This document shows positions 558-22,500 of a DNA stretch of 60,060 nucleotides, piece after piece. Origin of the DNA: Candidatus Omnitrophota bacterium (GTDB lineage: Bacteria; Omnitrophota; Gorgyraeia; Tantalellales; Tantalellaceae); contig WJMG01000019.1 of assembly GCA_014728075.1 (NCBI GenBank), positions 1 to 60,060 of the forward strand. Reading direction: 5' to 3'. The stretch's first letter is position 1, and every line of letters starts with the position of its first letter. Below the pieces are notes generated by a model. That model was not told the origin of the DNA and searched no databases. It saw nothing but the letters and a program-made list of their open reading frames with translations. Position numbers and translations under genes: made by a program.

Positions 558-1229
558 ATGCCGTATAGAAAAGATGCCCTTGGAAACAATGAAATTTATC
601 ATGTTTATTCAAGGAGCATTGCCCAATTTCAAATATTTAATTCTTCTAATGATTTTAAGAGGATGATCCTATCTCTACATTTTTTTAAACATACAGACCC
701 TGGAATTAAATTCTGGCAATACTATGAATCGTTAAAATTCCATAAAATAAATACATATAACCACGATATGTTTAACGGAAAAGAACCTCTAGTCGACCTA
801 ATAGCTTTCTGCATGATGCCTACTCATATCCATTTAATACTCCGTCAGGTCACGGACAAAGGCATTTCCCGGTACATGTATATGTTGCTGAAAAGCTATA
901 CACAGTATTTCAATTTCCGTCACTCTCGCAAGGGACCGCTTTGGGAAAGCCGGTTCCGTAATGTACATGTAAAAACCGACGAGCAATTTTTACACCTTAC
1001 AAGATATATACATCTAAACCCTTGCACATCCGAGCTCGTTAAAAACCCGGAAGATTGGAACTATTCCTCCTACAAAGAATATACATCGCCCAGATCTTCT
1101 GAAAATAACGGTATCTGTGAATTTAATGGCCTTTTGGACATGTGCCCTAAAAAATACAGAACTTTTACGAACGATAGAAAAGATTATCAAAGAAAGCTAC
1201 ATCTGATCAAACATTTATGTCTGGAATGA
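558..1229 (+). CDS. rayT: Y1/HUH transposase of the IS200/IS605 superfamily, REP-associated tyrosine transposase (RAYT)-like
   Basis: 223-aa ORF preceded by AGGAGG (546..551), 6 nt before the ATG. HUH motif in MMPTHIHLIL (H-I-H = 825..833). Catalytic Tyr in LTRYIHLNP (Y = 1005..1007). GPLWESRF and PEDWNYSSY fit the RAYT/COG1943 pattern (G.lW..Rf ... Y.h.NP ... W.wSS). Bracketed by REP-like palindromic arrays. Confidence 0.85.
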   Translation: MPYRKDALGNNEIYHVYSRSIAQFQIFNSSNDFKRMILSLHFFKHTDPGIKFWQYYESLKFHKINTYNHDMFNGKEPLVDLIAFCMMPTHIHLILRQVTDKGISRYMYMLLKSYTQYFNFRHSRKGPLWESRFRNVHVKTDEQFLHLTRYIHLNPCTSELVKNPEDWNYSSYKEYTSPRSSENNGICEFNGLLDMCPKKYRTFTNDRKDYQRKLHLIKHLCLE

Positions 1230-1523: not shown

Positions 1524-4500
1524 TTACGCTCTTATAAGCACTTCCGTAACATAGCGCTCGTAAGCCCTGATCTCGGCCTCGAGGTCCACCTTCTGGATCT
1601 TCGGGAAATATATGAACCAGTTCCCGGAACCCGCTACGGATATGACCTCTCCCAGTTCCGCGGGGATACTGCCCGTAGCCGCTATTTCCACCAGAGACAT
1701 GAGAAGCTGGGAAGCTATCCCCCCCTCTTTCATCTGCACGAATAGCGGCGCAGATATTTCGTCCTCCATGATGGCCTCATCCTGTTCCGTTACCACAAGA
1801 TTACCGGTATCACCTATAGCCAGGTCCTTTGCCAGCATATCCTCACCGAAAGTGCTTCTGGCCAGTTCTATAGTACGCTCCAGGGTCATGTCGTCGGGAC
1901 CCGTTATCACCACATTGGATGGTAAAATATAACCGCTGAGCCCCGTTGCTTCCATGATCTCTTCCTTATTCGCTTCTGTTATGTTCGCGTCGCGCACTCT
2001 GACCTGTATGAAACGCGAAGCCTCTTCCGCGGTGATGCCCATGCCGGCGATGGAGTTGGCTATGAACTTCAGGTCCGCCGCGCTGCCGGCCGATACGCTT
2101 ATGTATTTTCTTGCGGCTTGCTGAGGCCCTTCCGTAATATACGATTCGGCCTCAGCGGAATACACGAAATCACCTTTTACCAGGTCATACACCCTGTTCA
2201 TCCTCAATTCGTACACGCTTTTTTGGCCGAGTTTGAAGGATTCAGCGTCCGGCAGGACTTTCGCCAGCACAAAGGCTATATCCCTCAGCTCTTCCAAAGC
2301 CTCTATCTGCATTACTTTCTGATAATCCAGTGAGGCTATCTCGGGGTTAAGCAGCATTACGATATCTTTTGAGGCCCTGGCGGCAAATCCTCTGATAAGT
2401 TCCTCCGCCTCTCCGGCCCTTTCGGGAGTTATGTCAAGAAGAGCCGCTATGGCCTTCTCCCCTTCGATCCGTGAGTCGAGCTCCGCCAGCATCTGTTCCG
2501 GGCCGCCGGGGCTTACCGGGGTCAGGCGAATACCGAGTTCCCTCTCAAGTTCCTCTACGGTACCTTCTCCCAGATAAGCGTAGACCCGGTCGGGAACGCC
2601 TATCACGACCGCATAATCTCCGAACGCCTCTTCACGGGCCTTATTCTTATCTTCTATTTCACGGATAAGGATCTGCGCCTCTTCCACGACCCAGGCGCCT
2701 TTCGAGACCTCAACGCTGTCCTTTGCCGCTATCGCCCTTATCTTCTCAAGAAGAGGCAGTGCCTCCTCTTCCATAATATTTTCACGCACTATCTTCAAGA
2801 TCCTGGCTATGTTCGTGTAAGTATATTCGTTCTCTATCCCTATATACGACAGCGCAGCGACAGCTTTTTCGTAAAGCCCGAAGCCGGCGGCCGCCTTGGC
2901 ATAGGAAAGATTGGGAAAATGCCACGGAAATGTAATACCCCTGAACTTCTCGATGCCGTTAAGGAACTCGTATACTTCATCGGCAAGTTCCGTATCTTTA
3001 AGATAGCCCAGAGCTTCGTACACAAGGTACCCGCCTTCATAGATATGAGGCCCCGCAAGATACTCCGCCAGGATCTTAATATCCTCTTCCCGCACCATCT
3101 CTCTCCCCTCCGGTTCCCTTAAGGCCATCAAGAGATAATGCGCGGATATGTATTTTTCGGCTATAAGGGACCTGATCCTGATCTCTTCCTCTTCGTTATC
3201 CGCGACAGCATAAGCTTCTTCTCTTATTTCGGGGTGGAGAGCCGCCAAAAGGTCCTCCATAGCCTTCCGCCTTTCATCATTCGGAAGGACACCGTCGACC
3301 AAAGCCCTTCTAGCCGCTTCAAGTTCTTTCATCCTGGAATCCGATATGAGCGGTAAAAATTTCTCGTACATCTCTAGATATATAAAATCGGCCTCTCCCT
3401 TATAGAGCATCGCGGGAAGGGTGCGGGACTGTACTACCTTGAACTCCCCGTCGTGAGTGAGGACCCATTCTATGTCCTGAGACCAGCCCCAGAAAAGGTC
3501 CTCTATTCCTTCGGCTATGCCGGAAAGCTCCCTCACCTGGCGCGGGGTAAGCACTTCCATGTCCATAAGCTCGTCGCCTACCTCGTCGAAATCCACATCC
3601 CTCATGCGCCCGTCCACCAGTTCTTTGAGCTGCATCTGAAAAGAACGCCTCGAATCCGTTCCCTCGTATTCGTCATCGGGTATTTCCTCATCCCTTACGC
3701 TGTCCCAGAGGAACCTGGCCACATTACCTCTGCCGGAAACCGCGGCCGCTATACCCCAGCCCGCCTTGGTCTCGACCCTCGCCTTGTTGCCGGGTACCGG
3801 GTCAACCGTCAGGGTAACGCCCGACCTCAATCTCTTCTTCCCGGCCTCCTCGAGCGTTTCCACTTCGACCGCGGGGACCTGAAGTATAACCGCGGGATAG
3901 ACTTCCTCCTCGGACACACCGTGCTGCACACGGGTATTGAAAGCCGTTTCCGAATATTTGGTCGCTATGACATATTTCAATGCCGTAATTATCTTGTTAT
4001 ACGGCCCGTCCGGGTCAAAATGATCGTATTTCACCTCTTCGTAAAGGTCGTGCTTGGGAAAAGACTCGTACTGTCCCGAGGCGCTTATCATCGGAAGGTC
4101 CTCGAAATTGAAACTGGACCTAAGGAAGAACGAATAGTTGCCGTTCCTGTCCATAAGCTCGTCCGCGGCGGAAATGACCTCTTTTTTGAGGTCTTCGTTC
4201 ATTTCGGCCCGGACTATGATCTCCCTTATCCTGGCCAGCCTGGAGGACAGCTCCTCGCCGGAGACCTGTATGCTGCCGTCCTCCGCGCGTATCGGCTTCA
4301 TTCCTTCGGTACCGTCGCCGGCGAATATTTCCTCTATTTTTTCCCTGAGGCCCGCGGACTCCAGGAAGCGCTGGCAGAACTCGAAAGAAAAAGCCGCAAA
4401 ATCCGGGACCTCGTAACCGTTCTTTATAAGATGGCCCTGGTTAGCGGCTTTCGCGCCGACCCTGTTGATGTAAAGCAGATCAACCTCGTCCCCCATGAAA

Positions 4501-7500
4501 TAGAGTTCGCTTTCCGGCCCAAGGACAGGTTCGGGTATCTTTATGTCCTCTGCAGGCTTAACCGCGGGCCTGGGGGGCGGGTTCTCTATCTCGAAATTCC
4601 TGGCCCTCCTGAGGCTGGCGTTCTTGCTTGGAGTCGCCTGCAGGGTAAAAAGAGTGTTCCTCATGGCGCCGTGGCGGTAATCGAAATCCTTGAGAAGATG
4701 AACACCGTCGGGCACGACCACGAGGGGAATACCCTTTTCCCTGGAGATGTTGAGCGCGTGAAGATTCCCTTCCACACTGGTAATTATCCCCGTGGCCTTG
4801 AGAGAACCCACATTATCGGAAAATTCCGGTATGACCCAGATCAGGTCTTCGGGAAGCTTTTCCTGTTCTTCCGGGCTGAGCAGCCGCTCAAGTTCGTCCA
4901 TGTCGTCCACGACTATCACTTTGCCCACCGCCGCGGGAGCCGCGTTCTCTACTCTCCGGCTGTGAAGCCCGTATTTATTGACATATCTCTGAAAATCGCT
5001 CCTTACGGCGTCGAACATGCCTTCGAGGCCCTCCATATCATCGTTCTCCGAGAGAAAACGCGCCCCCTCGCCTTCTCCTTCGGTCATCTCTCTCAGAACA
5101 TAGCTGACCTTACCCCATATGTACATAGCCCTGAAGAACGCCTGGTCGATATCGTGTTCCCGGGTAACTTTCGCGTAAGCTTCCCTGAACCTTGCCAGCC
5201 CGTCCTTCAGCCTCTTGAAATCGGTCAGCTTCCTGCCGAACCTGCTAAGATATGCCGCCTCGGCGGAAGAGACGAGCGCCAGCATTACATCTATCTTGTC
5301 AGGGCTGAAGCTGAAGGATTCCATTATGAATTCTATCCTTTTGGCCGCCCTGGCCATCTGATCGGCTATCGCGTTCTCATTGGCCTCCAGGATCATGGCG
5401 GATATCTTCTCCATTTTTTCAGTGTGCACCGTCTGGGGATATTCTTCCCTGGGACGAGTATTCCAGTACTGATGCAGAAGGATCGCCCTTACTATCTGGT
5501 TGTAAAGGACCGGCATAACTATATCGAGCGGCATCTCCTCGAAAAAGGCCCTGGTCATGTAAACGGCCTGAGAGGTACCCTGCCTGGTCCCCGAAGACGC
5601 TACCACCCATTTCTCCTGGTCGGCGCCCAGTAGATACGGATAGCTTTCGTATCTGCTTCCCGGGACCGCTTCTATAAGGTATACCTGGAGGTCGTTGACG
5701 AACATGCGGCCCTCGGCCAGGGCCTTGCTTTTCTCCTCGGCGTCCATTTCCAGGTAATTCGTCTTTAAGAATTCGAAGAAAGTTTCGTCACCGTTCAAAG
5801 CCCCCAGCCTTTCCAGCAGCGCAGTGGTGACCGGCCTCGCCTCCCCTCCCGAGTAATCTCTGTCAACATAAAGCCCTCTTTCCGGGTCGAAGGACAGCAG
5901 GAGAAACTTCTTTTCCCCCCTGGCCCCCACGAAAACATCTTCCTGTATCCTCCTTCCGACCGCTTCTTTCCAGTAATGGCTTTCCGTGCCCAGCGAACCT
6001 ATATCCTTGGGATGACTCCCTATCCTCGCGGCTTCGCGCGAGACCTTAAGGTCTTCTTCCAGATAGTCCTCCACCAGCCAGGCCGGTCCGAGGCCGGCTT
6101 CCTCGGCGGGCACGGGCCTGTACCCCGAAGCATAGATAAAAGCCTTCTGCTCCTCCGGCTCACCTTCGGGAACATTAATGCCGGTTTCTGAATACCCGAA
6201 AAGCCAGTTCAGCGCCTCGTCAACATCTTGCCGGTCGCCCTCCAGCTCCATGGCTATCTCGGTCCCGTCTTCGGGGAGAAACCCAAAAGTGAGAAATCCC
6301 ATAGCGTTATTAACAGGGGACATCTCCTCCCCCTTCTTACCCATGGATACCTTGACCTTACCCGTTTGTATGAACTGCTTGAAAAATCCACCGGCGGGTC
6401 CAGCGTGAAAACCTCTCGTGTATTTGTTCAGCGTAAAGACCGTCTCTTCTTTCACCGGTCCGGCTTCTTCGGCGGGCGACCCGTATCCCGAGACATATAT
6501 AAGGTTTCTCTGCTGCTTCTCCAGGCCTTCCGGCATTCCGGGGATACCTTCTTCCGTATAGCTCAGAAGCCAGTTCACGGCTTCGTCGACATCCTCCCGA
6601 AGCCCCTCGAGCTCTATTTCCACCAAATCCTCGGCTTCGGGGTCCAGCCCCATGGCAAGGACATTCGTGGGGAAAGACACCCTTTGCCTCTCTTCCCCGG
6701 GCCGGCCCATAAAAAGCCTTACTTTTCCGGTCTGAACATACCTCATAAAGAACTTCTGGAGCGGCCCGACATGAAGGCCCCTGGTATACCTGTTCAACTT
6801 TACCGTGGTGGTTTCCCTGACAAGAGGCATCTCTTCACTGGAAGCGAAGATCTTCTCCTCCCCTTCCGAAAGCTCCTGGACATCCAGAATGAAGTCATTA
6901 ACATCGCGCTCTTTTCCGAGGATCCTGAACTCAGCCTTTTCACCCTTATTCATAAAAAGGTTGCTCGCCCCTTTTACGCTTACGGGGCCGCCCTCCGCCA
7001 GAAGCTCGAGAGATACGCCGTACTCTTCCATAAGCCTGATTATTCGACGGGCCGGCGCGTTGTGTATCCCGGAGGGAGCGGTTACCGTAAAAGCGAAGTT
7101 CCCCTCGTAGGGAGCCTCTTTCCCGGGAACGGCCTCTTCAGTCTCCGCGGCGCGCCTTTCGCCTCCCGCCAGGACCGATACGGCCAGTCCTATAGTGAAC
7201 AAGGCGGGCGCGAGCATACCGTGAAGCAGATACGCCCAGGCGTCGTTCACCCCAAGGCGGAGGTGCGCCCATTCGTGAGTGTAATAAAAATACTGAAGCG
7301 AAGGCGGCCTCTTTCTCATTTCGGCCTCGTTGATGTGAAGCACTCCCGCCCCGTCGACAAAGGCGATGAACCGGTCTTCATCCGTCAGGTCTTTCATCAC
7401 CATCCGGTCGTCCGAAAATTCGTCAATCAGTCCGTATTCCGCTTTCTGGGCCCCCGGCAGCAGGCTTTTGAGAAAAATATCCGCCCTGTTCACGGCCCCC

Positions 7501-10500
7501 GAATAAAGATCAATACCCTGTACGGCGTAAAGAAGGGCGGTCAGGGAGAACCATACACCCCCTAACAGGTAACGCACATCCGGACCGAGCAAAAGCATGG
7601 CCGCGCCGAGCCCCAGGAACAACCCCGAAGCGAGCATGGAGCCACCGGCGGAAACCGGTTTCTCTTCGGCCTTTTTACTCGTCTTTTCCCCGACGAGGCT
7701 GTCCATGTTCTTCGACTGGGTGAGCGTAGCGGTCTTGTCATCTCCCTTCTCACCGGCCGGCCCGATATTTATCCAGGGAGAAGCCCCCACAAGCCTTTCT
7801 CCGAAGGTGGAAGAGAGCCCTTCGATGAACTCCATGGCCTTTTTCGGACCTATAAGGTTCATATTGAACTCGTTAACTGTAAAATCTATCTCTTTTCCCG
7901 ATACCACGGGGAAATTGTTTATCCACTCAACGGTGCTTCTAAGGTACTCGTCCCTGTCGTCCTCCTTTCCGGTTATCCACGCGTGTATATCGATAAGCAC
8001 TCTTCCGGGGTCTATCCCGACCTCGGGCATCTGGAGGACCCGGAAAAGTTCGGCCGCGATGTCGGGCTCCGTAACGGTGATCCCCACTATAAGCCTTTTC
8101 TTGGCGGGAAGCGCCCTGAGCAGCCTCACCACACTGCCTATAACCTCCGCCTTGGAGTTCTTCTCGTACTTGACGGGCCACTCTATCTCGTTGACCATGA
8201 AATCCACCCGCTCATCGCTCCCGTACCGGCGGGCCACCTCAACGGCTTTATCAGTGAGTTTTTCGAGAGCTATATCGTCCTTCACGGCAAGCACCATATC
8301 AAGGGCTATGAGCTGCGCCTTCATGCCTTCGGGAAGAAGACCCATAAAAGCGTCAAGTTCCTTCATATCAAAAACATCCGGCTTGCCTATATTTACCCTG
8401 ACCGCCCCGTATCCCGCTTTCCGGTACCTCTCGAGCTCGGCCTTTATCCATTCGGCGTTGTTCGTAACGCTTCCCTTTGACATATCGAACCCAAGCCCTC
8501 CTTCTGGAGAAGGCAGGCGCAGATGCCTGACATGGGACACCTTTCCGGGTTCGGCTTCGGCGCGCGCGAGAGTGCCCGCCCCGACTATGGCAACGGGGTC
8601 GGAAGCCTCCCCGTCATAGGAAAACTGAATACCCAGCGCGTTGGTCTCCCGGAAGACGGCCCTGCGTTTTTCGGGATCCAGACCTGAAACATCGAATTTT
8701 ACCCTCACCACACCCGGAGAAGCGAGCAGAACGGAATGCGGCTGTCCATAGGCCGGTTTCCAGCCGTCGTACTTGACGAAAGGCTGCAGGACCAGGGGCT
8801 TCTCGTGGTCGGCTACATATATGCCGGGCACTTTGATATCGAAATAGATCACGGGCGTATCCGGTCCGAGGACATCGCCGGCCTCAAAGAGCACGCTCCC
8901 TTTCTGGCGCGCGGGATCCTCGACGCGGGGCAGGAACGAAGTATTCACCCTTATGGTCTCCAGATCAAGGGGTTCGGCGCTTTCAACGGCCTTTGCCCCG
9001 GGATCGCCCTTATCGGCGTAGAACCTGTACCGCGCCCCGTCGAAGAACGGCTCTCTTTCCGGCGGGTCGGTAACGCTTATCGAAACGACCTCGATATCCT
9101 CGGCGGTTTTCCTCCTGAAAAAGGCCTCGAGTCCCACTATCCTCACGCGGGAAGCGATATCTTCAGGCACGGTCCTGAGGTCGAAGGTCACCAGGGTATT
9201 TACTCCCGAGGAAGTAACATTCATGCCCGGTCCTTCTTTCGCGGTCCAGTCCGGGGCCCCGGCCTTGACATAAGGCTTAACCCATAACAGCTCGTCTTTC
9301 TTCTCGACATACCCTTCCGGGACGCGTATCTTGAACACCAGGATCTTTCCCCTCGCGTCGACGGCTTCGTCGAAGGCAAAATCAGCCCGGCCTTTCTGTC
9401 TGTTACGGTCTTCCTCAGGAGGCCTGAAATCCATATCCAGCCGGTACCCCCGGCCCTCACGCACCACTTCTTTCACGGCTTTCGCGTCCGCAGTGCCTTG
9501 ATCGGGCGAGCCCTTTAGTGCGGTTGTCCTGACCACGGCTTCCTTACGGGCCCGGCCTCCGTCAGCCGGCTCCGCCGCGCCCAGCTGACCGGTGAGGATC
9601 ATGAACATCACAACGGGAGCGGCGAGCAGAAAACGGGCCTTGAAAGGCATCACTCCGAGCGTTCCCTTTAACGCCGCCAGGGCCGGTTTAGCTTTACGGG
9701 CAATATCGCCTACAAAATACATCAGGACAAGAAGGGGAGACAACGGCCCCTGCAGCGAAAAGACCGAAAACTCGGACAAGGTCGTGTTCCTGAGTCCCGC
9801 CGAAAGAAGCGTTTTGTGGATAAGCTCGTGATTATAATAGAACCTCTGGACAAAAGCCGGGCGGCGGGCCATGGCTTCGGCGTCGACATGCATAACGCCA
9901 TCCGCGTCCACATAAGCCAGGCTTTCCCTGCCCGGGGCTATCTCTCTGGAAACTGAAGGATCGCTGAACTCCGGTATAAGCCCGGGCCCCGCCCTCACGG
10001 GAGTGACCCTGGGGAAAAGCATTCTATCAACCCGGGAGAAGATATCGTATTTCAGGTCTCCCGACTGCACAAGATACACCACGGAAGACAAAGCCGCCCA
10101 CGCGCCCGCAAGGAAATACGGCATATCCTGCCCGAAGACAAAAGCACCGACGGCGATCGCCCCAAAAAGAAGAGCCGCCGCCAATGAAGCGGAAGGCGTT
10201 ATTTTCATCTTTTTCCCGCTAAGCGAGGATATCTGTTTTCTCGCCCTTTTTATCCTGCGTCCGGCCAGTTCAAAGAACCTGAGGTTCACCCCGTTCGATA
10301 CGGCAACGCGGGCATTAGAGTTGAATATCCGCCTGAGCTCGTTTATGCTGGCCTCGTTAAGCTTGACGAGGTCTTCCGCCCTCGCGAAACGCCCTATCCC
10401 GATCTCCGACTCTATCTCCTCGAAAACACCGTTAACGGCGTCCCTCAACTCGATGACCCTGAGTTCCGCGTTATAATCCGTAACGCTCTCGTCAGCTTTT

Positions 10501-13500
10501 TCCGCTTCGGGCGGAAGCGCGGTCTTCGTGTCGTTCCCGGCGGGGACACCGTCCAGACTCAGGCTCACCCACGGCCCTACGCCCCGGCAGTTCGGGAAAT
10601 CACGGAGTATCTCACGCAGGAACTTTTCCCCGCCTCCGTACTTTACGACAAATTCGTTAACACTGAACTCTACATCGTCCGGCACGGACATCAGGTATTT
10701 TCTGCATTCCTCCAGATATATATCGGGATCCTCTTCTTTCCGTTCTCCGACATAAGCGTGCAGGTCCAGAACTACATTATTCGCTCCGATCTCGTTCACT
10801 ATACCGACCGCCAGGCCTATTTCGGTCAGGGTGAAGCCTATGTGAAGTTTCTTGCCCCGGGCGGCCTGGTCCTGGGCCAGCTCTTTCAGCATCGACACTA
10901 TCATATCTCTCGATACGGGATCCGGCTTCTCTTTTCCGGGAGCCGGCTTTCTCAGGTGGTATATACCCCCTTCTTCGCGGGATACGATGTGTTCGGGCTC
11001 GTTGACACTCCATATTATGTTCTCGTCGTCACCGTATTCGTCCAGCAGAGCCACCGCCCGCCGGCGGGTATTCTCGAGGCTGTCCTCCCCTCCCGATACC
11101 AGCACAAAATCAATGAACACTACTTCCAGCTTTACCCCCGCGCGGCGGGCTATACCCAAAAGCGCTTCGAACTCCCTTTCAAAAGCCCGTCTTCCTCCCG
11201 GGGTATCGAAATCGAGGACTTTCCCTATGTTCACTCTCACCGCATCGTACCCATGTCCGGACGCCGCGAAAGACTCGAATCTTCGCCTTACCTCCCCGAT
11301 GTTCTCTGTAACGGCACCGGGAACGAGGTCAAATCCGACCTCTTTCGTTTCAGGGGGCGCCGGCAGCCTCCAGTTCCGGGTGAACACCGCCTGCCTGACG
11401 GGGCGTTTCTTCGCGTCAGCCACATAGACTTCCTCTATCTCCACGCGTCCCGAAACCTCGTTATCCGTCTCGAACTGGGCCCCGACGATCGTTATCTGCC
11501 CTATATCCCGGGGAAGCTCCATCTCCGCCCTAAGGGTGTCCCCGGAGACGAATATGTCCTGTGAACTTTCTTCCATTGCCATAAAATAATCCGGCGCGGG
11601 TCCCTTCACGAAAAGCCGAACTCTAGCGGGCGTCGAAGCGTCCGTGAAACCTTCCGGCACAGAGAACCTGACAACGAGTTTTTCGTTCTCCTCCACAGTC
11701 AGCGGCGCCGCCAGTTCGAAGTTCACTCTGCCCCTCTGCCTGTTCGCGTCCGAGGAAGAGAAAGCCGCGTCGATCACCGCCGCTTTCTCTCTGGACTGAG
11801 AAGCTTGCCTGAAAGCGGCAACATCGAGCATATCCGGCGCGGGCCTGTCCACATATACTTCCTTTACTCCCAGGTCTTTCTTTTCCTCTTCATATCCCGG
11901 AGCCATGGCCCTGGACGCTTCCGCCGCCCGCCTGGTCATGCTCATGTGCTCCCTCCATATCCTCATGGCCTCTTCAGGATCTATCCTCCGGTCAAGGTCC
12001 GGCCTGCCTATTATCCTGGGATTGGCCAGCTCAAGGCGTCCTATCGACCTTTTCTGCGAATACCCGTTAAGCAGCAGATACCCCCCCGCTACCGCGTCGG
12101 GGTCGAAATCCTCTATAGTCGGCATGGTCTTTTCCGAGGCCATGGACAAAGTCCCCCAGTTCCCCTCCATGAAGCGTATGCTCCTGTAATCGGCTTCGTT
12201 GTGTTCGTCCAGTTCGACCTTTGTGGGGATATTGAGCCTGGCCCTGCCCCCCTGCGCGCAGATGCCCCCTTCCTCGCCCAAAAGCTTGAGTTCCAGGTAT
12301 TTCCCCTTCAGCTCATCCCGGGAAGACGGGTCCGGCAGCCTTACATCCACGGCAAAGACCTCCCTGTCCGAACGCATTCTCCTTGCTTCGGGAAACATTA
12401 TCCTGACCCCGCCCTCGGTCCTTTTGACATCGAACACGGTCCGGGGCAAAAGGTCGTAGAAAAGCGAATACCCGTTGACCACATTGGGGATCTTCTCGTT
12501 GGGAAGCACCATGTTGTTGGGGCTCACGCCGAACGGGACCATGTCTCCGTGGATGTGCCGCCAGTCAACCCCGAAAAGTTTTCGATAAAGACCTCCCGCG
12601 TCCTTTATCACTCCTTTCTTTTCGAGCGCTGAAAGAGTGTGTTCGAAGTTTATAACATAGTAGTCGAGATGCCACTGGGGGTACGCCTTCCCCGACGCCT
12701 CCAGCCGCTGCATCTCCATAAAGGCCATAAGACTGTGGAACATCTCTTCGGTTTCCCGGCTCATTCTGCCCTCGGTTTTCCTGTCCCTCTCGGCGGCGTC
12801 CTCGAAATCCTTGAGGTAACCCCTGAAATCCTTAAGAACCTCGAGAGCCCTTTCACCGTCACGATCGAGGACGGTCCTCGAAACTTCTTCCCCGGGAGCG
12901 AGCTCGTCGGATATTATCCTGTAGGCCCTTCCTGAGGGGTCCTGCTCCTCCACCATCACCCTTCTCTCGGTCTTCGTCGCTATGGCCCTTGCCATGCGGG
13001 CCCTCTGAAGAGCGTCGGGCCCCTGGTAGAGGTAAAGTATCGCCCCCGAAGGGAGTATCAGGAACACCAGGGCCACGAAACCCCGCTTCAGGTAAGGCAC
13101 TATTTTAGAATCCCAGTAATCCCCGGCCCTGGATAAGGCCCCGGTTAAAGAAGATACCACCCCCAGCCTTTCCGTTCTTATCTGAGTCTTGCCGTGCCAG
13201 GGAAGTTCCTTCACCCTGCGGGGGATCATCACGGAGAACCAGGACGGCATCCTTTCAGCCATACGGAAAAGACGAGCGCAATTCCTGACCAGGAACCTTA
13301 CCCTCGAGAGGGCGGAGCTTCCCAGCCTTGCCCGCGTCAGGGCCTGCCGGCCTCTCCACCATACCGCGCTTATCATCTTCGGAGAGAAGAACTGGTAAAT
13401 GGCCAGCACGGCCGCGAATATAAGGTGGTTGAAATACTGTATGAGAAGCGGAGATTTCATTATCCATACTATGCCGTGCCTTGATCGCCTGCCCACGGTG

Positions 13501-16500
13501 GCAATAGGCTTTCCGGTCACCCAGCTGTAAACCGTCAGTCCGAGGTCGATCGCGGAAAACACCAAAAGCGCAGCGGCGCTCTGCCACGGGATAGCGCTGG
13601 TAGCGTAGAGCAGAAGCCCCGCGGCCCCGACCGCAAGCCCGGCAAAGAACCCTACCCAGCCCAGTCTTATCTCTCCCCTGACCATACTTTTAAGCTCTTT
13701 AGCCCTTTCCACGGCCTCGTGCACGGCGCTCAGCGCCATTATCCTTTCCTCAAGCGGGTCGAGGTACTCCCTTCTTTCCGCTTTCCTTATCCATTTCCTG
13801 TCAGCCAGCTGTTTGAAATCGCCGCCTTTCAGGAACTCACGGAAAGAAGCGAAATCCTTTCCGAACTGCTTGTACTTTGCCTTTCTCCATACAGTGAAAA
13901 GGTCTTCGAGCCCCGCGAAAGAGGCGACGAAAGCCTCGCCGTCAAAGATATTTTCAAAAAGCTCCTCTTTTTTATCCTCCATTTCCGCTATGTAATCGTC
14001 AAGGACGGAGAGGACCTCTTCGTCCTCGGAATAATTGATGTTCAGCCTGTCCGCCGGGACACCCCTTCTTCTTTCCAGGACCTCCCGCATCCCGAAGAAA
14101 CTGCTGTAGTCCATGTCCTCGATACCGAGAAGGTTCCTGGCCGCTTCCCGGAGCATCTCCTCGTCCTCGAAGCTTTTCCTTACGGATGTCATCACGCCCA
14201 TGAAGGTCTGTATTACCATGGGACTTGCGAAGATCATGGCTCCTATGGCCGTGGTCACCAGCCAGCCGTTCAGCATGGGCACCGTGCCCTGAAGCTGCTG
14301 GGCGGTGTGCATGAGAAGAACCCCGATATCCCCGAGGAACGGCATGGGAACATTGGCGAAAAGCAGGATCAGAAGGTACAGGTCGGTTATCAGGAACATG
14401 GCACCCGCGGCAAGCGCCGCAAGCGTGCCTGAAGCGAGATGGGTGACGAACTGGAACCTTACATAGCCCCACAACAGGCCCACCAGTCCCGGACGGCCGG
14501 CCATGGATACTATCGGGTCCAGGTCGTGCTGCATCTGCTTCAATATTCCCGCTCTTTCAAGGGCGGGGTTGACTACGAACCTTCCGGCTATGTAGAACAG
14601 CCATCCGAAGACGAAGAACCCGGCAAAAGCCAGCAATATGCCGTTCAGGGCGAACTGCGAACTGCCGAGAGCGCCCCACACCAGGCCGAACCCGAGGTAT
14701 TGCCCGAAGAACATCATGGCCGCGGGCAGATAGCTCAGTGTGGCCGAAAAGGTCTGCATGGATATCCACCTCGCCCTCTGGAACCACCAGGGAGTCCCTA
14801 CTTCGGGCAGGGCGTCCTCGAGTATCTGGGTATATTTCCCCTCGAGCCGTGTGTTGGGTATACCGTAAAGCGCCGTCCTGCGGCCCAGCTCGGAATCCTC
14901 GATTATGTTATACAGGTCCCACACCCCGGGTATACTGTACTTGTTCAGAAAATCCCTGAAAGCCGAAGCGGGCTTGAAAACGGAAGGTTGTCCGCTGAAC
15001 ATCAGGGTGATCCTCTTCAGCACCGCCCGGTACCAGGGCATCCTTCCTATCTCTTCCCTTACGGCGGCCCTTTCCACATCTATCTTCTCTTTCAGCGGGA
15101 ACTGGAGCATCTGGTGGTGCATCCTCCTGGAAAGCGGGAGCGCTCCCACAACGAAATTCCTGTCCCCGTCCATTATAGCTCTCGAGCCGGCAAGCCTTTC
15201 CCACCTGAAGTTGTTACCCGTTCCGCCCAGGAAAAGGAATCCGAACTTGGTCTGTCCGGGCTGTATGGTGGAATGCCACAAAAGATAATCCATGTGTGAT
15301 TTTTCGCTCAGCAGCGGATCACCTGTCGGCACCAGCCTCAGCTCCGACTGTATGACGAAAGGCGTATGGCGTTCCCTGAACTCGGATTCTATAAAATGTC
15401 TTCTCGGGTCATCGACCCTGGTGACATGTTCGGACTCGAAAAGGAACGATTGCGAAAGCGCCCAGGCCTTGAAAAGCCCCCGTTCTCTCTCGATGTCGGA
15501 ATTCTTCCAGGATAGTACCAGGTTGATATCCACGGCGTCGCCCATGAGAATGCCGTTTATGTCGGAATCACTGAGCCCGTACCGCCTTTGTATGCCGGCT
15601 AGCCTGCGCCTGTACTCCTCCTCAACGGCTCCGAGGGCGCTTTTGTCTATATCGTACGACCAGGTCTTCACGAAGGACCATAGCTGGTATTTGACCCTGT
15701 CCTCCGCGTTGCCGGAGACCAGCAGCGAAAGCGCTTCCTCGAAATCTTTTTCCATTAGGGCGTCGAACTCCCCGGCCGTCGTGGTCCCGGACTTTTTCCT
15801 GAGAGACGAGAGGACATTGTCGAATTCTCTTCCCAGAAGACCCTCTTCGCGGCTGAAATCTATACCCCACCTGTCGACATCTTCCTGGTCTATACTTCCG
15901 GGCGCTTCCGGGGTACCGGCCTGTTCTTTCATCACCCGCTCCCTCATACCCCACACGCATATCTTTGAGCTCAGGTTCAGCATGCCGAGACGGTCCTCCT
16001 GGTCCACCAGCTCCACCGAATACGGCGGTTCGAGATCTTTTTCCGCGTAATACCTTTTGGCCATGGCTATACAGGCCGAGTTCATAGGCGGTTTCATGCG
16101 GACCTTTCTCGGGTTCTTGGCGAAATTGATCCCCCATTCCGGGAAGGTGAAAACATGTATGTTGTTCCTGAGATGGTAAAGTTCCCCCATCTCCTCCGGA
16201 CCCCGGTCAACTCCTTCTTCGTTTCCGTAAACGGCCCTGTAGCAGGACCCTATGCCGCCGGCGTCGTCGTTGTCCAGCGCGAGTATATAATCGATCTCCC
16301 CCGGCCAGGAAGCGTTGGCGCTCTTTATGGTCTGCTTGATGTTATCGCCCGCGTCGGAGCTGAAAACGGTGTCCATTACGGCCAGCTTGTGAAAAAGCGG
16401 TACCGGCTCTACTCCTTTCTGCACGCGTCCCGCGAGTTCGGATATCTCCTCCTCGGTATACATCCACTGCCCCTCGCCAAGCTGTATGTCAAAAACCCTG

Positions 16501-19500
16501 CGGGCCCTTGAAAGATCACCGGCCGTGGCTTCCTCCAAGAGATCGGCGTTCCTCTTGAAGATCGTCAGGAATCTTTCCCTGGCGAGCAGCCGCCTTATGG
16601 CGTCGAGGTCCATTTGTGAGATTATATCGGAATTATCTATAAGCCCTTGCGCATCCAGCACGGAGGGGTCTTCTATCGAATCCATGAACTCGTCGTCCAT
16701 GCGAAGCACATCCACCAGGTCTTGCCTTCTCGCGTTGTTGATGAGGTAGAGTATCAGATGCGAGTGCGTGTCCATCCTCAGGCGATAAACGGCCCATTTT
16801 TCTATCGGTTGTTTTCTAAGCAGGTGCAGCCAACCTCTTATCCCGGAGTACTCCATAGACACCTTTCTCCAGACCTCTTTGGCGTTCCCGCTGGTGATGA
16901 TATTGTTTCTCATCGCCGCGGGGGTGTACCGGGTGCCGTTCTCGGCGTCTTCCGCCATCATGGACGCTTTCACCTCGTTAAGCATACCGGAAAGCGTCTG
17001 TTCGGGTATGTACCTGAGTATGTCGCGGTCGGTCACCATTTCGCCTCCGCCGAAAAAGAAGCGCCTTATTCCGGATATTCCGGGGACCCAGCTGAACAAA
17101 CCCAGGGTTTTTCTTATGATCCTTCCCGGCAGGCCGCCGGCTATCCTTTCGCTGCCCGTAAAATGCCCGGCCGCGAAAAACGCGACCTTGATCAGCATGT
17201 TCACCATCGTATAAGCGAATATTATCGAAACACCCATCGTCATGGCAGTGATGGGTATAGTGTATGCGGGCGCGTCCGACAGGCCGAACGAACCGACCAT
17301 GAAAATACGGATACCCATGGCGATCCACGGGGAAGATATGAACAGCGGGGCCATTATCAATATCACCGGGACCAGCCGTTTCAGGGATTCGACCATGCTG
17401 GTGCTTGCCGGGCCTACTCCGCCGAAACCCTTGATCCCCATCACATTTCCGGTCTCCTGGGCTATCCTGTTCTTGTCCTCCTCGTCGGCCACCACGGCAA
17501 GCTCTTCACCGTATTCTCCCGTACGCCCGAGCTTGGTTATGTTGTTCATCCGGCTCAGTATCTCGGGCACGAAAAGAGGGATGGCCGTCATCGGCACCGT
17601 CTGCCAGCTCATCCCCCTGTACTTCAATAGCCCGTTATGGGCCTCATCCTCTCCGAGTGCCCGGTAAGGCCCGTCCCTTGAGTACCATGCCTCGCGGGCA
17701 TCTTCCCGGCCTTTCGGCACGGGCATCAGACCGTAGAAGGTATCCTGCCCGTCGCTGCTGCGGCGCACCTGGTCAAAAGCCGGCCCGCGCATCCAGAAGG
17801 TAGGTTGCTGCGCCCTGAGAGGTGAAATGCCGTAATGGGCTTCGGAATGCATCGTAAAACCACTGTTCCTGGCGCTGTCGGCCATGAAATCCATCCACAT
17901 TATACTGTAATCGGCGTAATCCAGTATGTTCATCGGCATGGTCCTTACCTGCAGGGCGTCGCCCGCGTCCCCGAAAGGAGCCTGCACGGTGACCGAAAGT
18001 ATCTTCCTTTTTTCTTCGTCAGTGAGGTCAGTTCCGTCGAGAGCCTCCAGAACTTCCGCCCTGAACTCCTCCAGGGCTTTCTTCATGTCGAGAACGACCT
18101 GCCGCTGCCTCACTCTCTGCAAAGCGCGGTCCAGGTTGGGGATCCTGCCGGCGGAAAGCAGTCTGGGGAGATAACTCACCAGGTCCAGCGCCACATAAAT
18201 GTTACGGCTGAGGTCAAGCCACGCCCTTTTTTTCCTGTTCTCCCAGAGCGTAATGTCCGCACGGAGATCCGCGAGTTCCTCTTCCGCCTCTACTACGCTT
18301 TTCTCCAGGCGGTCCGCCTCTTCCGGGTCCGCTTCCTTCACCGCAAGGGCTTCCCTCTTTTTCCGCCCGATATCTGACTCAAGCGCTTTCGCCCGCGCCC
18401 GTAAGCGCGAGGGCTGGCCAGAGATATAAACGATCGCCGCCTTGGCGATGAGGTAGAGCCCTCCCAGCGGCACGAGCCCAAGGGCCATCAACACGGCCGC
18501 CAGCATATGCACCTGGAAACCCCAGGGAAAAGCGGTAGCCATCAACAGTGCTCCCGAAATAAAGAACACCGCGCCGAGCTTATTGTAAGGCACTCTCACC
18601 GGAAACTTATTTCCCTTCTCGCCGTACCTGCCTTCTTCTTCGTTCCATACGACCCCGTACGGGTTGAGCTTGATATGGGCATCCTCGTATTTCCGCGTCA
18701 GATCGGACCCGGCCTCCGACAACGCCTGCCTTACTGAGACGATGTCCTCGAGCTTGGCCCCGTCGACCCCGGGCCTTACGACGGGCCTTAAAACCTTTCT
18801 TTCGGCCTCTTCCCCGGCTTCTTCGGCGGATTCTTCCACGGCCTCTTCCTCGCCGGCAGTAAGACCCGCGGACGCTTCTCCGGCACCTTCCGAAGGCCTT
18901 CCGCCTTCAGGCCTGCCGCCTGCATCCCGGCGGCTTTGACGGGCCTTATCCCCGGAGATCAGCCTCCTTGCTCCGCCCAGGAGCTTACCGGCAAGGCTGA
19001 CAGCCAGAAGTCCAGCGAGAGTGATCCCGAACACCCAGCCGAAACTGACAGCGTACCTTATGGCTTTTCCCCTGAAAAGCCTCGCGCCTACCTGGTCCAT
19101 TGCCTCCTTCAGGGTCAGACGCCCTTCCATGAGGTCCGCCGTTACCTGCATGCGCACCCTTACATCCACTTCTCCGAGATCGTACCTCGTTGAATCGGAA
19201 GCTATATCTCCCACCAGCTTGAGAAAAAGAAGCCTTTCCGCCGCAGGCGACATCCGCGCTTCCGGGTCCTCCTCGACGAGAGCGAGCTTCTCGTTGGTCA
19301 GGTTGGCTTCGAAAAAATCCCTCAGCAGACCTTCCTGTGTTTCCGAGGCTATCATGCGCATCTTGGGCAGGACATCGGCGCCGTATGTCTCAGCGAGATA
19401 AATGAGCTGTCCCAGCGAAGCGTTCCCGTTCTGATCGGAAACATCGAAGAACTCCCGGGCATCGACGGCTTCCTCCGCCCCTGTCCGGTTATACATCTCC

Positions 19501-22500
19501 GCGACCAGAACGCCCATTTTTTCGACCGCTTCGGCGGCTGCCAGGCCTTTTTCGGCTATAACGCCGTCCATGCGGTTCTTCCACCTCATCATTGTATAAT
19601 AATCCTTTTCGGGGATATCCCTCATTTCGCTCCCGTACCTGCCCATGAGCCGTGCAAGCTGGGGCCCGAACACATCTTCGTAACGGGCCGGCCGCCCCGT
19701 GTCCTCGACCGAAAAGGAACCGTCGTTGAAATCGACATCCTTTCTAACTCCCTGTATCTTCCTGTCCGGATCAGGCACGGTTATGTCGGTGCCGGGCGCG
19801 TATACCACGGTAAACCGCTTAACCCCCCGCGGCAGTTCGCTGAGTTCCCGTCCCTCCCAGTAATAGACGCCGTCCTCTGTATAGAACACTCTTTGCCTGC
19901 TGATAAGCGTCCGTCCGCCGGGATACACCAGTTCGTTGTTCTCGTCGATGAACACACCCTCAACGAGGCGTTTGCTCGGAAGGGGGCTCCCGTCCGGGCG
20001 GCAGGGAGAAACGAACACCGATCCGGCCAGGTCGCCGGTGAAATGCTGTACGAAGAGAAGTTCGGGAACACCTTTTTCGTCAACACCGTAAGCGTACCTC
20101 GTAACATCCCTTTCCGCTCCTACCACTCTTCCGTCATCGAGTATGCGCACGCCCTCGACCTCGCCTATGGCTCTCGAAGCCTCGTTGGCAAGGGCATCGT
20201 AAAGGGATTTGAATATCTTCCCTCCTTTGCCTGTGGTTATGTATACCCGTCCTGTCGTGTCCAGCACATACTGGACCTTCGGGTCCTCGACATCGTCGTA
20301 CCCTATCTTGAGTATGGTCACCTCGAGCCCGTCGATGTCCACTATGAAATCCTCGTTATCGAGCGACAGGAAACTTTTCCTGAGTTCCGCTCCGGTAATA
20401 TCAGAAAGTTTCATCACCTCGACCGGAAAAGATATATTATCCGTGGCCAGCCTGGCGACGGTCAGGTTAGGCCTGGACCTGTAGGCCTTGAAAACACCTC
20501 CACGGAGATCTTCCGGCACATACTCCTCGTCGACATATTTGGTGTAATGGTAGTCGCCCCTGTAACCTATATATCCGTACGGCTTGCCGGCAAGCAGCGG
20601 GACCTCATTACCTTCAGGGATCTCTATACCGGTCCTTATCTCGAAAGCCACGGATCTTTCTTCCGATATGGAACCGTCCCCGTCGTAGCCCAGCCTGTAT
20701 ATGTAGGTCAACGGTTCCACCTGTTTAGGCGCGAACCTCTGGTCCCTTTCTATGTAACGCTCCCTGGCAAACCTCAGCACGGGCCTGCGCGAAAGGTCAT
20801 CGTAACCGAAATCGACCACTTTGACCTCAACGGCTTTCCTCTCTCCGTCCACGGTGCGGAATTCCCTGAAGGTGCTTCTCAGCGGAAGGCCTATCTTCAC
20901 CGTGGGCGTGTCGGTAGTAAGGTATGTCCCCCCGGCCGTGGCGAATTCCGTCAATACTTCCCCGGTATCGCTGACCTCTTTTATCGAGCTTACCCTGTAA
21001 GCCCCTTCTTCCCCGGGAGCGCCTTCCGGGTCAAGGTAAGTAAAGACCTTTTCCGGACCATCTCCTGTTTTCTCCGACCTCAACTGGTTGGCCGCGGTCC
21101 TGTAGAACTGCCGTTCCGTGACGACATCTTCCAGCCCCCCGGCCAGGAAACGCCTTTTTACGGCCCTTTCCCCTGACTTCAGGGCGGTCCTGGCGCCTTT
21201 ATCATCAAGGTAATAATCTATGGTGGTCTTTTCCGGGAAGGCGTTGAGAGCCAGCCTGTCCCCCAGGGAACGCATCCTCCTCCTCAGCTCTCCGGCATCC
21301 GGAGGCAGGACAAGGTACATCTTTTCGAGCAGTTCGGCGGAATCCTCCCAGCGAGCCTCCTCAACGAAGCCCTTGAGTCGTTCGAAAGCCTTTTCAATCG
21401 TTATCCTTCCCTGGAGGATCCCCATCCTGGAAGCCATGTATTTCTCATAGACCCCGGTATCGCTTATCTGCTCGAGCCGTTCAGTGACAGCGCCCAGAGC
21501 CTCGGCTATTTCTTCAGGAGTGTACGGCCTCCGGTGATCCACTACCCCGCTCAACAGTCCGTCCCCGTAATACTCGTACTCCATTTCCAGGATCTCTTCA
21601 CCCGTTACTTTTCCATCCCTGACGGTCACGCCGGAAACCTCGTTCTCGCTGACACCCCGCTTCTCCGCCGAAGCGGTAAAGGTCCTGCCTTTCATCTCAA
21701 GGCCTATACCCGCTCTTCTCAAAGAGGGGTTCTCACCGGCCTCCTCAAGGACCTGCCCGTCATCAGTATATTGCGTATATATTTTCCCTCCTCTATACCC
21801 GATGGAGGATATTATTCTCACGCCCGAAAGGTCGGGTTCACGGCCGGGAACGATCTCAAGCCCCATTATTTCGTTCACCGGGTTCTCAACATCTCCGGCG
21901 GGGGCCACGAAAGTCCGGCCGGCTGCCTGGGACTGGCCTATCTCCTGAAGAAGCTCAGAAGTGCCCTCGTAGTGTATGTATACTTTCCCCCCCAGGTAAG
22001 CCATTTTTGAAAGCACCTTCTGTCCCGTCACATCGGCTTTGCCCGGGTGGACCTCGACGCCGGAAACCTCCATGACCGGCCTGGTCAGATCTCCGGCGGC
22101 GTAAGCGAAAGTGCGCCCGGCAAGCCCGGGGTCCTCTCCCGCTTTTCTCAGGACCCCCTCGTCTTCCGAATAGCTGACATACACCATTCCGCCCGCTATT
22201 CCCGCGGTCTTGACCACGGTCCCTTCGTTAACCACTTTGCCGTCCCTTATCAGAGTATCCGTAAGTTCCATTATAGCGGGGCCCTCCCCTTCGCTTCCGC
22301 GGACAAAGGTCTTCCCCCTGTTCGGCCCCCTTTCGTAAGAGGTCCATATACGACCCTCACCGTCGTAAGCGATACGGCTTACGACCTCCTCCCCGGAGGG
22401 GTCGGCTCTACCCTCGACAACATTTACACCACGGACTTCCATGAACGGCCGATCCACGCTGTCTTCCGCGGCCACGAAAACCCTTCCGGCAAGGCCGGGG

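Follow-up and report, generated by a model that had tools for sequence, protein, structure and literature searches.

We investigated the C-terminal part of a giant protein, here called p1, encoded on contig WJMG01000019.1 of a 'Candidatus Omnitrophota' bacterium (GenBank assembly GCA_014728075.1). The window, that is the whole stretch of 60,060 nucleotides (nt) that was analysed, is almost filled by two giant open reading frames (ORFs), p1 and p2, both on the minus strand. The region of interest, about aa (amino acids) 8690-9930 of p1, apparently forms a swivelling-histidine dikinase in the domain order of glucan, water dikinase (GWD), fused to three domains that resemble HPr, the phosphocarrier of the phosphoenolpyruvate (PEP)-dependent phosphotransferase system (PTS), a combination that is rare and seemingly undescribed. 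The window coordinate of an amino acid of p1 was obtained as hi = 33188 - 3(aa - 1). The two ORFs are as follows:

1524..33188, minus strand: p1, 10,554 aa
33475..60045, minus strand: p2, 8,856 aa, directly upstream of p1 on the same strand, with a gap of 286 nt

A crude Kyte-Doolittle hydropathy scan gave at least 14 hydrophobic, transmembrane (TM)-like segments in p1. The region of interest lies beyond the last of these and is therefore regarded as a soluble tail, which in a multi-pass giant membrane protein presumably faces the cytoplasm. From the N- to the C-terminus, the tail contains three HPr-like domains (HPr1 to HPr3), a domain that we call mid, a phosphohistidine swivel-type domain, an ATP-grasp domain, a helical repeat and a C-terminal alpha/beta domain. 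The features, in this order and starting with the end of the membrane region, are:

7164..7643, minus strand: the last two TM-like segments of p1 (aa 8516-8534 and 8657-8675, Kyte-Doolittle) with the intervening loop
6840..7103, minus strand: HPr-like domain 1 (HPr1), aa 8696-8783, with SGIH(8709)NAPARR
6489..6821, minus strand: HPr-like domain 2 (HPr2) with its conserved tail, aa 8790-8900, with RGLH(8806)VGPL ... EIELEGLREDVDEAVNWL
6126..6455, minus strand: HPr-like domain 3 (HPr3) with its conserved tail, aa 8912-9021, with RGFH(8928)AGPA ... AMELEGDRQDVDEALNWL
about 6420-6520 and 6080-6160, minus strand: the conserved tails of HPr2 and HPr3, aa about 8890-8911 and 9010-9035
4944..6020, minus strand: mid domain, aa 9057-9415, with a small beta/alpha part and, after it, a long-helix bundle
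4629..4943, minus strand: phosphohistidine swivel-type domain, aa 9416-9520, with DLIWVIPE ... EGNLH(9477)ALNISREKGIPLVVV
3420..4466, minus strand: PpsA-type ATP-grasp (PPDK_N), aa 9575-9923, with GAKAAN, LRSSFNFEDLP, SGQYES, QDIEWV and VQSR
2619..3401, minus strand: helical-repeat domain, aa 9930-10190, all-helical with high confidence (predicted local distance difference test, pLDDT) in an AlphaFold2 (AF2) model
1527..2609, minus strand: C-terminal alpha/beta domain, aa 10194-10554, ending in ...YERYVTEVLIRA

An earlier note, made from the DNA letters and their translations, had read three HPr-like domains, a swivel histidine domain and a PpsA-type ATP-grasp into this region. The motifs that it quoted were all found at their positions in one minus-strand ORF, with the codon of His9477 at 4758-4760 exactly.

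The assignment of aa 9575-9923 to PPDK_N is certain. The Pfam model PF01326 (cut-off 27 bits) matches over its positions 2-308 of 328 with an E-value of 1.4e-33 and 117 bits, which bears out the PpsA-type ATP-grasp of the earlier note; the relatives described below all pass this cut-off too. The best NCBIfam match is PEP_synth TIGR01418 (8.4e-28), in its N-terminal third only, and the NCBIfam PEP synthase score of 97 bits is far under the equivalog cut-offs of 598-740. The best match in the PDB is the PEP synthase 8a8e (7.5e-14). The motifs GAKAAN, LRSSFNFEDLP, QDIEW and VQSR are intact; in PPDK (pyruvate, phosphate dikinase) and PpsA (PEP synthase), ATP and Mg are bound by the Lys, Arg, Asp-x-Glu and Gln-x-Arg that these motifs hold.

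The domain that precedes the ATP-grasp carries the swivel catalytic motif EGNLHALNISREKGIPLVVV, in which His9477 is found. This histidine is invariant in 18 of 18 family members, and the Pro of the motif in 19 of 19. The family motif reads H-A-x-x-x-[AS]-[RK]-E-x-G-I-P, against G-x-x-H-A-x-I-x-[AS]-R-E-x-G-I-P for the swivel domains of PF00391, and aligns to the catalytic His of PpsA. A profile of eight members of the family was aligned by hhalign to residues 372-451 of the canonical PpsA P0002, which carries the Pfam swivel model PF00391, with a P-value of 2e-4, 31% identity and the histidines in register. The family profile also matches the swivels of PpsA structures in the PDB (2ols 363-447 and 8a8e 388-465) with an E-value of about 0.06. 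In the AF2 model, the swivel is a beta/alpha domain whose weak Foldseek neighbours are LdcA, RraA and GroEL, proteins that we take to belong to the 'swivelling beta/beta/alpha' fold class of SCOP. The swivel histidine domain therefore stands, despite a PF00391 score below the cut-off. It is not immediately followed by the ATP-grasp, as had been claimed, since a linker of about 55 aa lies between the two.

We regard the three HPr-like domains as confirmed, strongly for HPr1 and moderately for HPr2 and HPr3, on the basis of hidden Markov model (HMM) searches and hhalign, with an AF2 model and its Foldseek matches for HPr3. Their histidines, His8709 (codon 7062-7064), His8806 (6771-6773) and His8928 (6405-6407), align with His15 of HPr within G-[LIF]-H-x-x-P, and all three domains keep this His and have no Arg two residues further on (A, G and G, respectively), as previously noticed. 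The C-terminal helix (I/M)ELEG..DVDEA.NWL, which had been ascribed to all three, was found in HPr2 and HPr3 and not in HPr1. HPr1 aligns over its full length with HPr of B. subtilis (PDB 2fep_S; phmmer E 0.0017) and is homologous to the canonical HPr domain of a relative, L001 (phmmer 4e-7); together, HPr1 and the L001 HPr gave an hhalign probability of 95-96% against canonical HPr, with E-values of about 2e-9 to 2e-8. With the Pfam model PTS-HPr (PF00381, cut-off 23 bits), the whole tail scored 21 bits and HPr1 alone 16.3, and TIGR01003 gave 23.2 bits, against a cut-off of 47.9.

HPr2 and HPr3 are paralogues with 47% identity and are much further from HPr than HPr1. In single-target tests with an HMM of canonical HPr sequences, of which the B. 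subtilis one was checked against the PDB match, HPr3 gave an E-value of 3e-6 (positions 12-77) and HPr2 one of 3e-3. The hhalign score of HPr2/HPr3 against canonical HPr was 21.0, higher than in 200 of 200 column shuffles (mean 10.6, maximum 19.6). The AF2 model of HPr3 shows the order beta-alpha-beta-(beta)-alpha-beta-alpha, where HPr, an open-faced beta-sandwich, has beta-alpha-beta-beta-alpha-beta-alpha, the third strand being only marginal in the model; the model that includes HPr3 was built from a 20-row alignment and has a mean pLDDT of 77.9 as a whole, with means of 10-residue blocks of 58-89 in HPr3. Among the 30 top PDB matches of HPr3 in Foldseek, 11 are HPr, Crh or NPr chains, with the whole target covered. 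No Foldseek match of the multi-domain AF2 model reached E <= 1e-3. A profile of HPr2 and HPr3 run against PDB sequences with HMMER gave no HPr match, so the case for these two domains is built on the targeted HMM, hhalign, AF2 and their paralogy. After both domains there is a conserved tail, GI..(M)PEG...Q...IY(V/A)SGY..P.PAEEAG, which is disordered in AF2 (pLDDT below 50). As HPr2 and HPr3 each carry this tail, the duplicated unit is about 122 aa long and consists of the HPr-like fold and the tail.

The stretch of about 420 aa that had been noted between the HPr-like domains and the swivel is not a linker, since the conserved mid domain lies there. This domain is family-specific, is present in all relatives and always stands directly N-terminal of the swivel. 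Its family motifs are HPHLL, SGT..G..AVYMTR, in which the Tyr and the Arg are invariant, and WG; HPH, SGT and WG are near-invariant. In p1, HPHLL reads YPYLL (aa 9183-9187, window 5628-5642). The two histidines of this motif are present in 15/18 and 17/18 members and both are replaced in p1 only, which could mean that the acceptor site is altered in the one member with three adjoining HPr-like domains. The helical part of mid has a pLDDT of about 80-95 in AF2. No Pfam match, no PDB sequence match (the profile gave noise only) and no structural match in Foldseek were obtained for mid, with a PDB copy that runs to April 2026, and the structures of the GWD central domain, from a paper of August 2026, were not among its matches. 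Structures of EIN, the N-terminal part of Enzyme I (EI), were absent from the top 50 Foldseek matches of the helical part, so there is no support for reading this bundle as an HPr-binding subdomain of the EIN type.

We looked for a PEP-binding barrel in the remainder of the tail and in both giant ORFs. The PEP-utilizers_C model PF02896 was not found in the tail at E-values up to 10, nor in p1 or in p2, where the scan covered all but about 200 C-terminal residues; PEP is thereby excluded as the donor in cis. For the C-terminal 635 aa, a profile built from four sequences gave nothing relevant in the PDB, only noise. In the AF2 model of these 635 aa (pLDDT 73.6), residues 1-270 form an all-helical repeat, with a mixed alpha/beta domain after it, and in Foldseek the model matched proteins of the TPR/ARM/HEAT type only, with no barrel of EI, PPDK or PpsA. 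The idea of a barrel hidden in this part was thus rejected, the part being a helical repeat plus an alpha/beta domain without assignment, and the absence of a downstream PEP-binding barrel reported in the earlier note holds in Pfam, in the PDB profile search and in AF2/Foldseek. Jackhmmer found the helical repeat in 15 relatives, and wherever the module occurs this domain comes after the ATP-grasp. The C-terminal alpha/beta domain, which ends in YERYV.EVL..A and has no Pfam match at E-values up to 10, occurs in a subset of relatives only (phmmer, jackhmmer).

The module formed by mid, swivel, ATP-grasp and helical repeat is very rare: 21 proteins were found at E <= 1e-3 among 1.84 billion representative sequences, and seven loci among 185,579 species genomes, and a profile of mid and swivel gave zero matches in JGI metagenome contigs. 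The closest relatives in genome collections are almost all metagenome-assembled genomes of 'Candidatus Omnitrophota'. Although the members share only 23-31% identity overall, the catalytic motifs of their ATP-grasp and the His of their swivel are strictly conserved. The TM region of p1 before the tail is homologous to the TM region that precedes the module in the relative L002 (phmmer 4.6e-9).

None of the 21 relatives matches the region of the three HPr-like domains of p1, and the tandem triplet before mid is unique so far. Word-indexed protein searches with the triplet plus mid, and with the alignment of HPr1 and the L001 HPr, found nothing, nor did a profile of HPr2 and HPr3 in metagenome contigs, and scans in all six frames, run on the window and on loci L001-L007, gave no further HPr genes. 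HPr-type domains are nevertheless met at other sites of the module. L001 carries one canonical HPr (GLHMRPA, with the Arg), which passes the Pfam cut-off with 23.6 against 23 bits, between the helical repeat and the C-terminal domain. At this same site, P0003 (the L002 protein) has an HPr-like domain in which the His is replaced (GQGLGILPL), and P0009 (7,326 aa) a His-less one. P0009 additionally contains a genuine PEP-utilizers_C barrel (E 3.3e-32; about aa 5135-5431) N-terminal of mid. After this barrel, and immediately N-terminal of mid-swivel-grasp, comes an HPr-like domain that has the His as well as the Arg (TGVHERTA; single-target E 1e-6; about aa 5565-5680). In P0010, a complete phosphoglycerate kinase (PF00162, 5e-86; aa 1516-1924) occupies the insertion site. 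HPr-type domains thus recur independently with a module as rare as this one, which speaks against a chance fusion and in favour of a functional link. Judging by these sequences, the module repeatedly recruits high-energy-phosphate domains, among which HPr is an accessory and not a core part. Glycan enzymes occur in some relatives as well, namely a GT2 in L002, a GH5 cellulase in P0010 and a sub-threshold NAGPA-like match in L005.

We then compared the p1 tail with known swivelling dikinases and phosphocarriers. In potato GWD, the order is two CBM45 modules, a central domain, a His domain and an ATP-binding domain, and the beta-phosphate of ATP reaches the glucan by way of the His domain, which pivots (PMC13553574). 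GWD1 and phosphoglucan, water dikinase (PWD; EC 2.7.9.4 and 2.7.9.5), from plants and algae, thus have the same order as the p1 module and no PEP/pyruvate barrel either, and the presumed chemistry in p1, from the beta-phosphate to the His and to an acceptor, would be GWD-like. The His domain of GWD, as the p1 swivel, is too divergent from PF00391 for ready recognition (PMC13553574). Unlike GWD, p1 has no CBM45 or other carbohydrate-binding module detectable with Pfam, and it is bacterial, membrane-anchored and 10,554 aa long, with three HPr-like domains. The likeness to PpsA and PPDK lies in the ATP-grasp, which is nearest to PpsA, and in the swivel His motif; in these enzymes, however, the order is ATP-grasp, swivel and barrel, whereas in p1 the swivel comes before the ATP-grasp and there is no PEP-utilizers_C barrel. 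The p1 tail was therefore rejected as a member of PpsA/PPDK, for the lack of a barrel and the permuted order, and likewise as an Enzyme I of the PTS, for the lack of a barrel.

Rifampicin phosphotransferase (RPH) and the PigC/RedH type are also barrel-less dikinases that pass phosphate from ATP via a swivel His to an acceptor other than pyruvate, as is proposed for p1. The order in RPH is ATP-grasp, substrate domain and swivel, unlike in p1, and the NCBIfam model of RPH (NF041857) gave 72 bits on p1, in the ATP-grasp only, against a cut-off of 999, so that the p1 tail is not an RPH member. The rifampicin-binding domain of RPH has weak HPr-like and EIIA-like subdomains and was described as a chimera by Stogios et al. 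(PMC4844700). In that HPr-like subdomain the His is absent and identity is about 8%; the HPr-like domains of p1, by contrast, are recognisable by sequence and keep the His. The reversed order proposed in the earlier note thus differs from PpsA and RPH as claimed; it is not unprecedented, since GWD has the swivel before the ATP-grasp. Among PTS proteins, the multidomain ones (DhaM, FPr and multiphosphoryl transfer proteins) hold an HPr-type domain and an EI-type swivel in one polypeptide, as does p1; DhaM, for example, joins HPr-like and EI-N-like domains. In comparison with EI/HPr of the PTS, the p1 donor is an ATP-grasp, there is no barrel, Arg17 is missing, no EIIA, EIIB or EIIC is present and the HPr-like domains are three in tandem.

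The setting of the module agrees with that of the 'Archaeovorin'-type giant multi-TM proteins of Omnitrophota, in which PPDK_N is among the recurrent Pfam domains (West-Roberts et al. 2023, bioRxiv 10.1101/2023.11.21.568195): these too are giant and multi-TM, contain PPDK_N and have neighbouring giant genes with SecA-like and TPR domains. That preprint makes no mention of HPr, a swivel or the mid-swivel-grasp module. HPr does not figure in either of the two papers on Omnitrophota giant proteins, nor does the PTS in the 2026 preprint, and no description of HPr-like domains combined with a dikinase in GWD order was found in the searchable literature.

In the present window, p2 contains a Ser/Thr Pkinase domain, a SecA_DEAD-like ATPase domain and many TPR in Pfam, with an FHA match that is sub-threshold by stretch. 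In p1, aa 1-8700 (window 7089-33188) gave zero Pfam matches at E <= 1e-3, which leaves the 'glycan-handling megaprotein' of the earlier note without a basis in p1; the hydropathy scan shows at least 12 TM-like segments in this part. By eye, the N-terminus of p1, MADWKKRHA...IQDAHASL.AQ...ALEGA.G, is common to the relatives P0008, P0011, P0015 and P0017, so that the same N-terminal domain and the C-terminal dikinase-like module bracket proteins of about 1,900 to 10,554 aa. Downstream of p1, an ORF at 558..1229 on the plus strand encodes an IS200-like Y1 transposase (PF01797, E 2.6e-6, 28 bits). It lies in a GC-poor stretch (155-1334; 0.43 versus about 0.56), and on its flanks are three copies of a 70-90 nt repeat with an internal palindrome (155-263, 457-548 and 1243-1334). 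The transposase and its repeats look like a REP (repetitive extragenic palindromic)-associated tyrosine transposase with REP-like elements.

Tentatively, we propose that the p1 tail is an ATP-dependent swivelling-His dikinase and that the tethered HPr-like domains are the most likely acceptors of the phosphate of His9477. The phosphotransfer steps and their direction are all inferred, those of the ATP-grasp and the swivel from what is established for PpsA, GWD and RPH. The ATP-grasp would bind ATP, transfer its beta-phosphate to His9477 and free the gamma-phosphate as inorganic phosphate (Pi), as in water-dikinase chemistry. The swivel would then swing off and deliver the phosphate to an acceptor at a second site. 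These acceptors would be the flexibly tethered HPr-like domains, at His8709, His8806 and His8928, giving a PEP-independent His-to-His relay within one polypeptide, for which mid may serve as a docking platform or as the acceptor site. Such a relay would be energetically reasonable because water-dikinase chemistry in PpsA attains a phosphoryl potential at the level of PEP. The intact ATP-grasp motifs, the invariant swivel His, the His kept in all three HPr-like domains, the recurrence of HPr-type domains in the family, the lack of a barrel and the precedents of GWD and RPH favour this as the most likely of the readings considered, and the YPYLL of mid is compatible with a changed acceptor. In its strictest form, in which a dikinase of GWD order charges tethered HPr carriers directly from ATP with Pi release as the drive, it is rather unlikely to hold.

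Several observations weigh against acceptor HPr-like domains. Most relatives have the module with no HPr domain at all, so the general acceptor of the module is not HPr; the relay carriers that the earlier note saw in these domains are no conserved part of it. No orthologue with the triplet was found in the collections searched, and relatives P0003 and P0009 have His-less HPr-like domains, which implies that the fold can serve without phosphorylation. Arg17, a residue important in HPr phosphotransfer, is absent from all three p1 copies, so that these domains lack two defining features of HPr, this residue and a score above the Pfam cut-off. HPr3 reached 14.0 bits with PF00381 (E 0.053; cut-off 23), HPr2 alone gave no Pfam match, and the Foldseek matches of HPr3 are weak (E 0.1-1, TM-scores of 0.36-0.45 normalised to the target). 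For the swivel, PF00391 gave 15.6-16.9 bits on p1, below its cut-off of 23.1, and no match at E-values up to 1 on the seven relatives tested. Among the Pfam models named in the earlier note, it is then PPDK_N that passes, with PTS-HPr and PF00391 below their cut-offs and PF02896 unmatched.

Some of these observations fit a GWD- or RPH-like dikinase that phosphorylates a small molecule or a polymer held on mid, the HPr-like domains being regulatory or docking modules, much as free HPr binds partners in many regulatory complexes. We regard this, the main alternative, as possible, if doubtful. Mid stands before the swivel in every member, with conserved motifs, at the place of the glucan-facing central domain of GWD; since it occupies the position of the acceptor-binding domain there, HPr need not be the acceptor in p1. 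The scarcity of HPr-like domains among the members, the lack of His in some of them, the missing Arg17 in p1 and the glycan enzymes of relatives (GT2, GH5 and the sub-threshold NAGPA-like match) point the same way. However, mid shows no recognised ligand-binding fold, and the change from HPH to YPY means that its site is perhaps altered in p1 exactly where HPr-like domains were added. In addition, His has been kept in all three of these through an old duplication (47% identity), which suggests selection on this His and speaks against a merely regulatory role.

The flow could also run in reverse, from PEP through an EI-type protein, acting in trans for p1 and in cis in P0009, to the HPr-like domains, to His9477 and on to ATP, formed from AMP with Pi or pyrophosphate (PPi); ATP made in this PPDK-style manner would feed the ATP-consuming parts of the giant proteins, and p2 does have kinase and SecA-type ATPase domains. 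P0009, with a barrel and an HPr-like domain with His and Arg just before mid-swivel-grasp, would suit this direction, as would P0010, in which phosphoglycerate kinase, an ATP-forming enzyme, is found at the site that holds HPr in L001. The phosphoryl-transfer role put forward in the earlier note is plausible; because of these two proteins, its direction, from ATP to HPr, is not established. Nevertheless, the ATP-grasp is nearest to PpsA, a water dikinase of the ATP-consuming direction, no EI or barrel was found in the 60-kb window, and a canonical EI would recognise domains that lack Arg17 less well, so we consider the reverse flow improbable. A reading of the HPr-like repeats, perhaps together with the entire module, as degenerate, catalytically dead relics that act as structural spacers in a giant scaffold would explain the sub-threshold Pfam scores of the HPr-like domains and the swivel, the loss of Arg17 and of HPH from p1 mid, and the His-less domains of relatives, but is very improbable given ATP-grasp motifs and a swivel His strictly kept at 23-31% identity and a His kept in all three p1 domains.

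To our knowledge, the His phosphate of the HPr family comes only from PEP via Enzyme I. If the proposed dikinase with tethered HPr-like acceptors is right, it would be a new entry point for ATP into PTS-type phosphorelays and a hitherto unknown route of HPr-family phosphorylation. It would also fall naturally between the PTS, PpsA/PPDK and the dikinases without a barrel (GWD and RPH); how these are linked in evolution is being discussed (PMC4844700, PMC13099321). The excised tail is of soluble size, about 1,500 aa or less, and is thereby open to direct labelling tests. Independently of the acceptor, a rare conserved module is now defined at the C-terminal side of giant proteins of Omnitrophota, for which hardly any functions are known, and its variable inserts (HPr, phosphoglycerate kinase and an EI-type barrel) point to the handling of high-energy phosphate. 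With HPr-like domains as the acceptors, the tail would provide these giant surface proteins of Omnitrophota with a built-in signalling or energy-coupling device.

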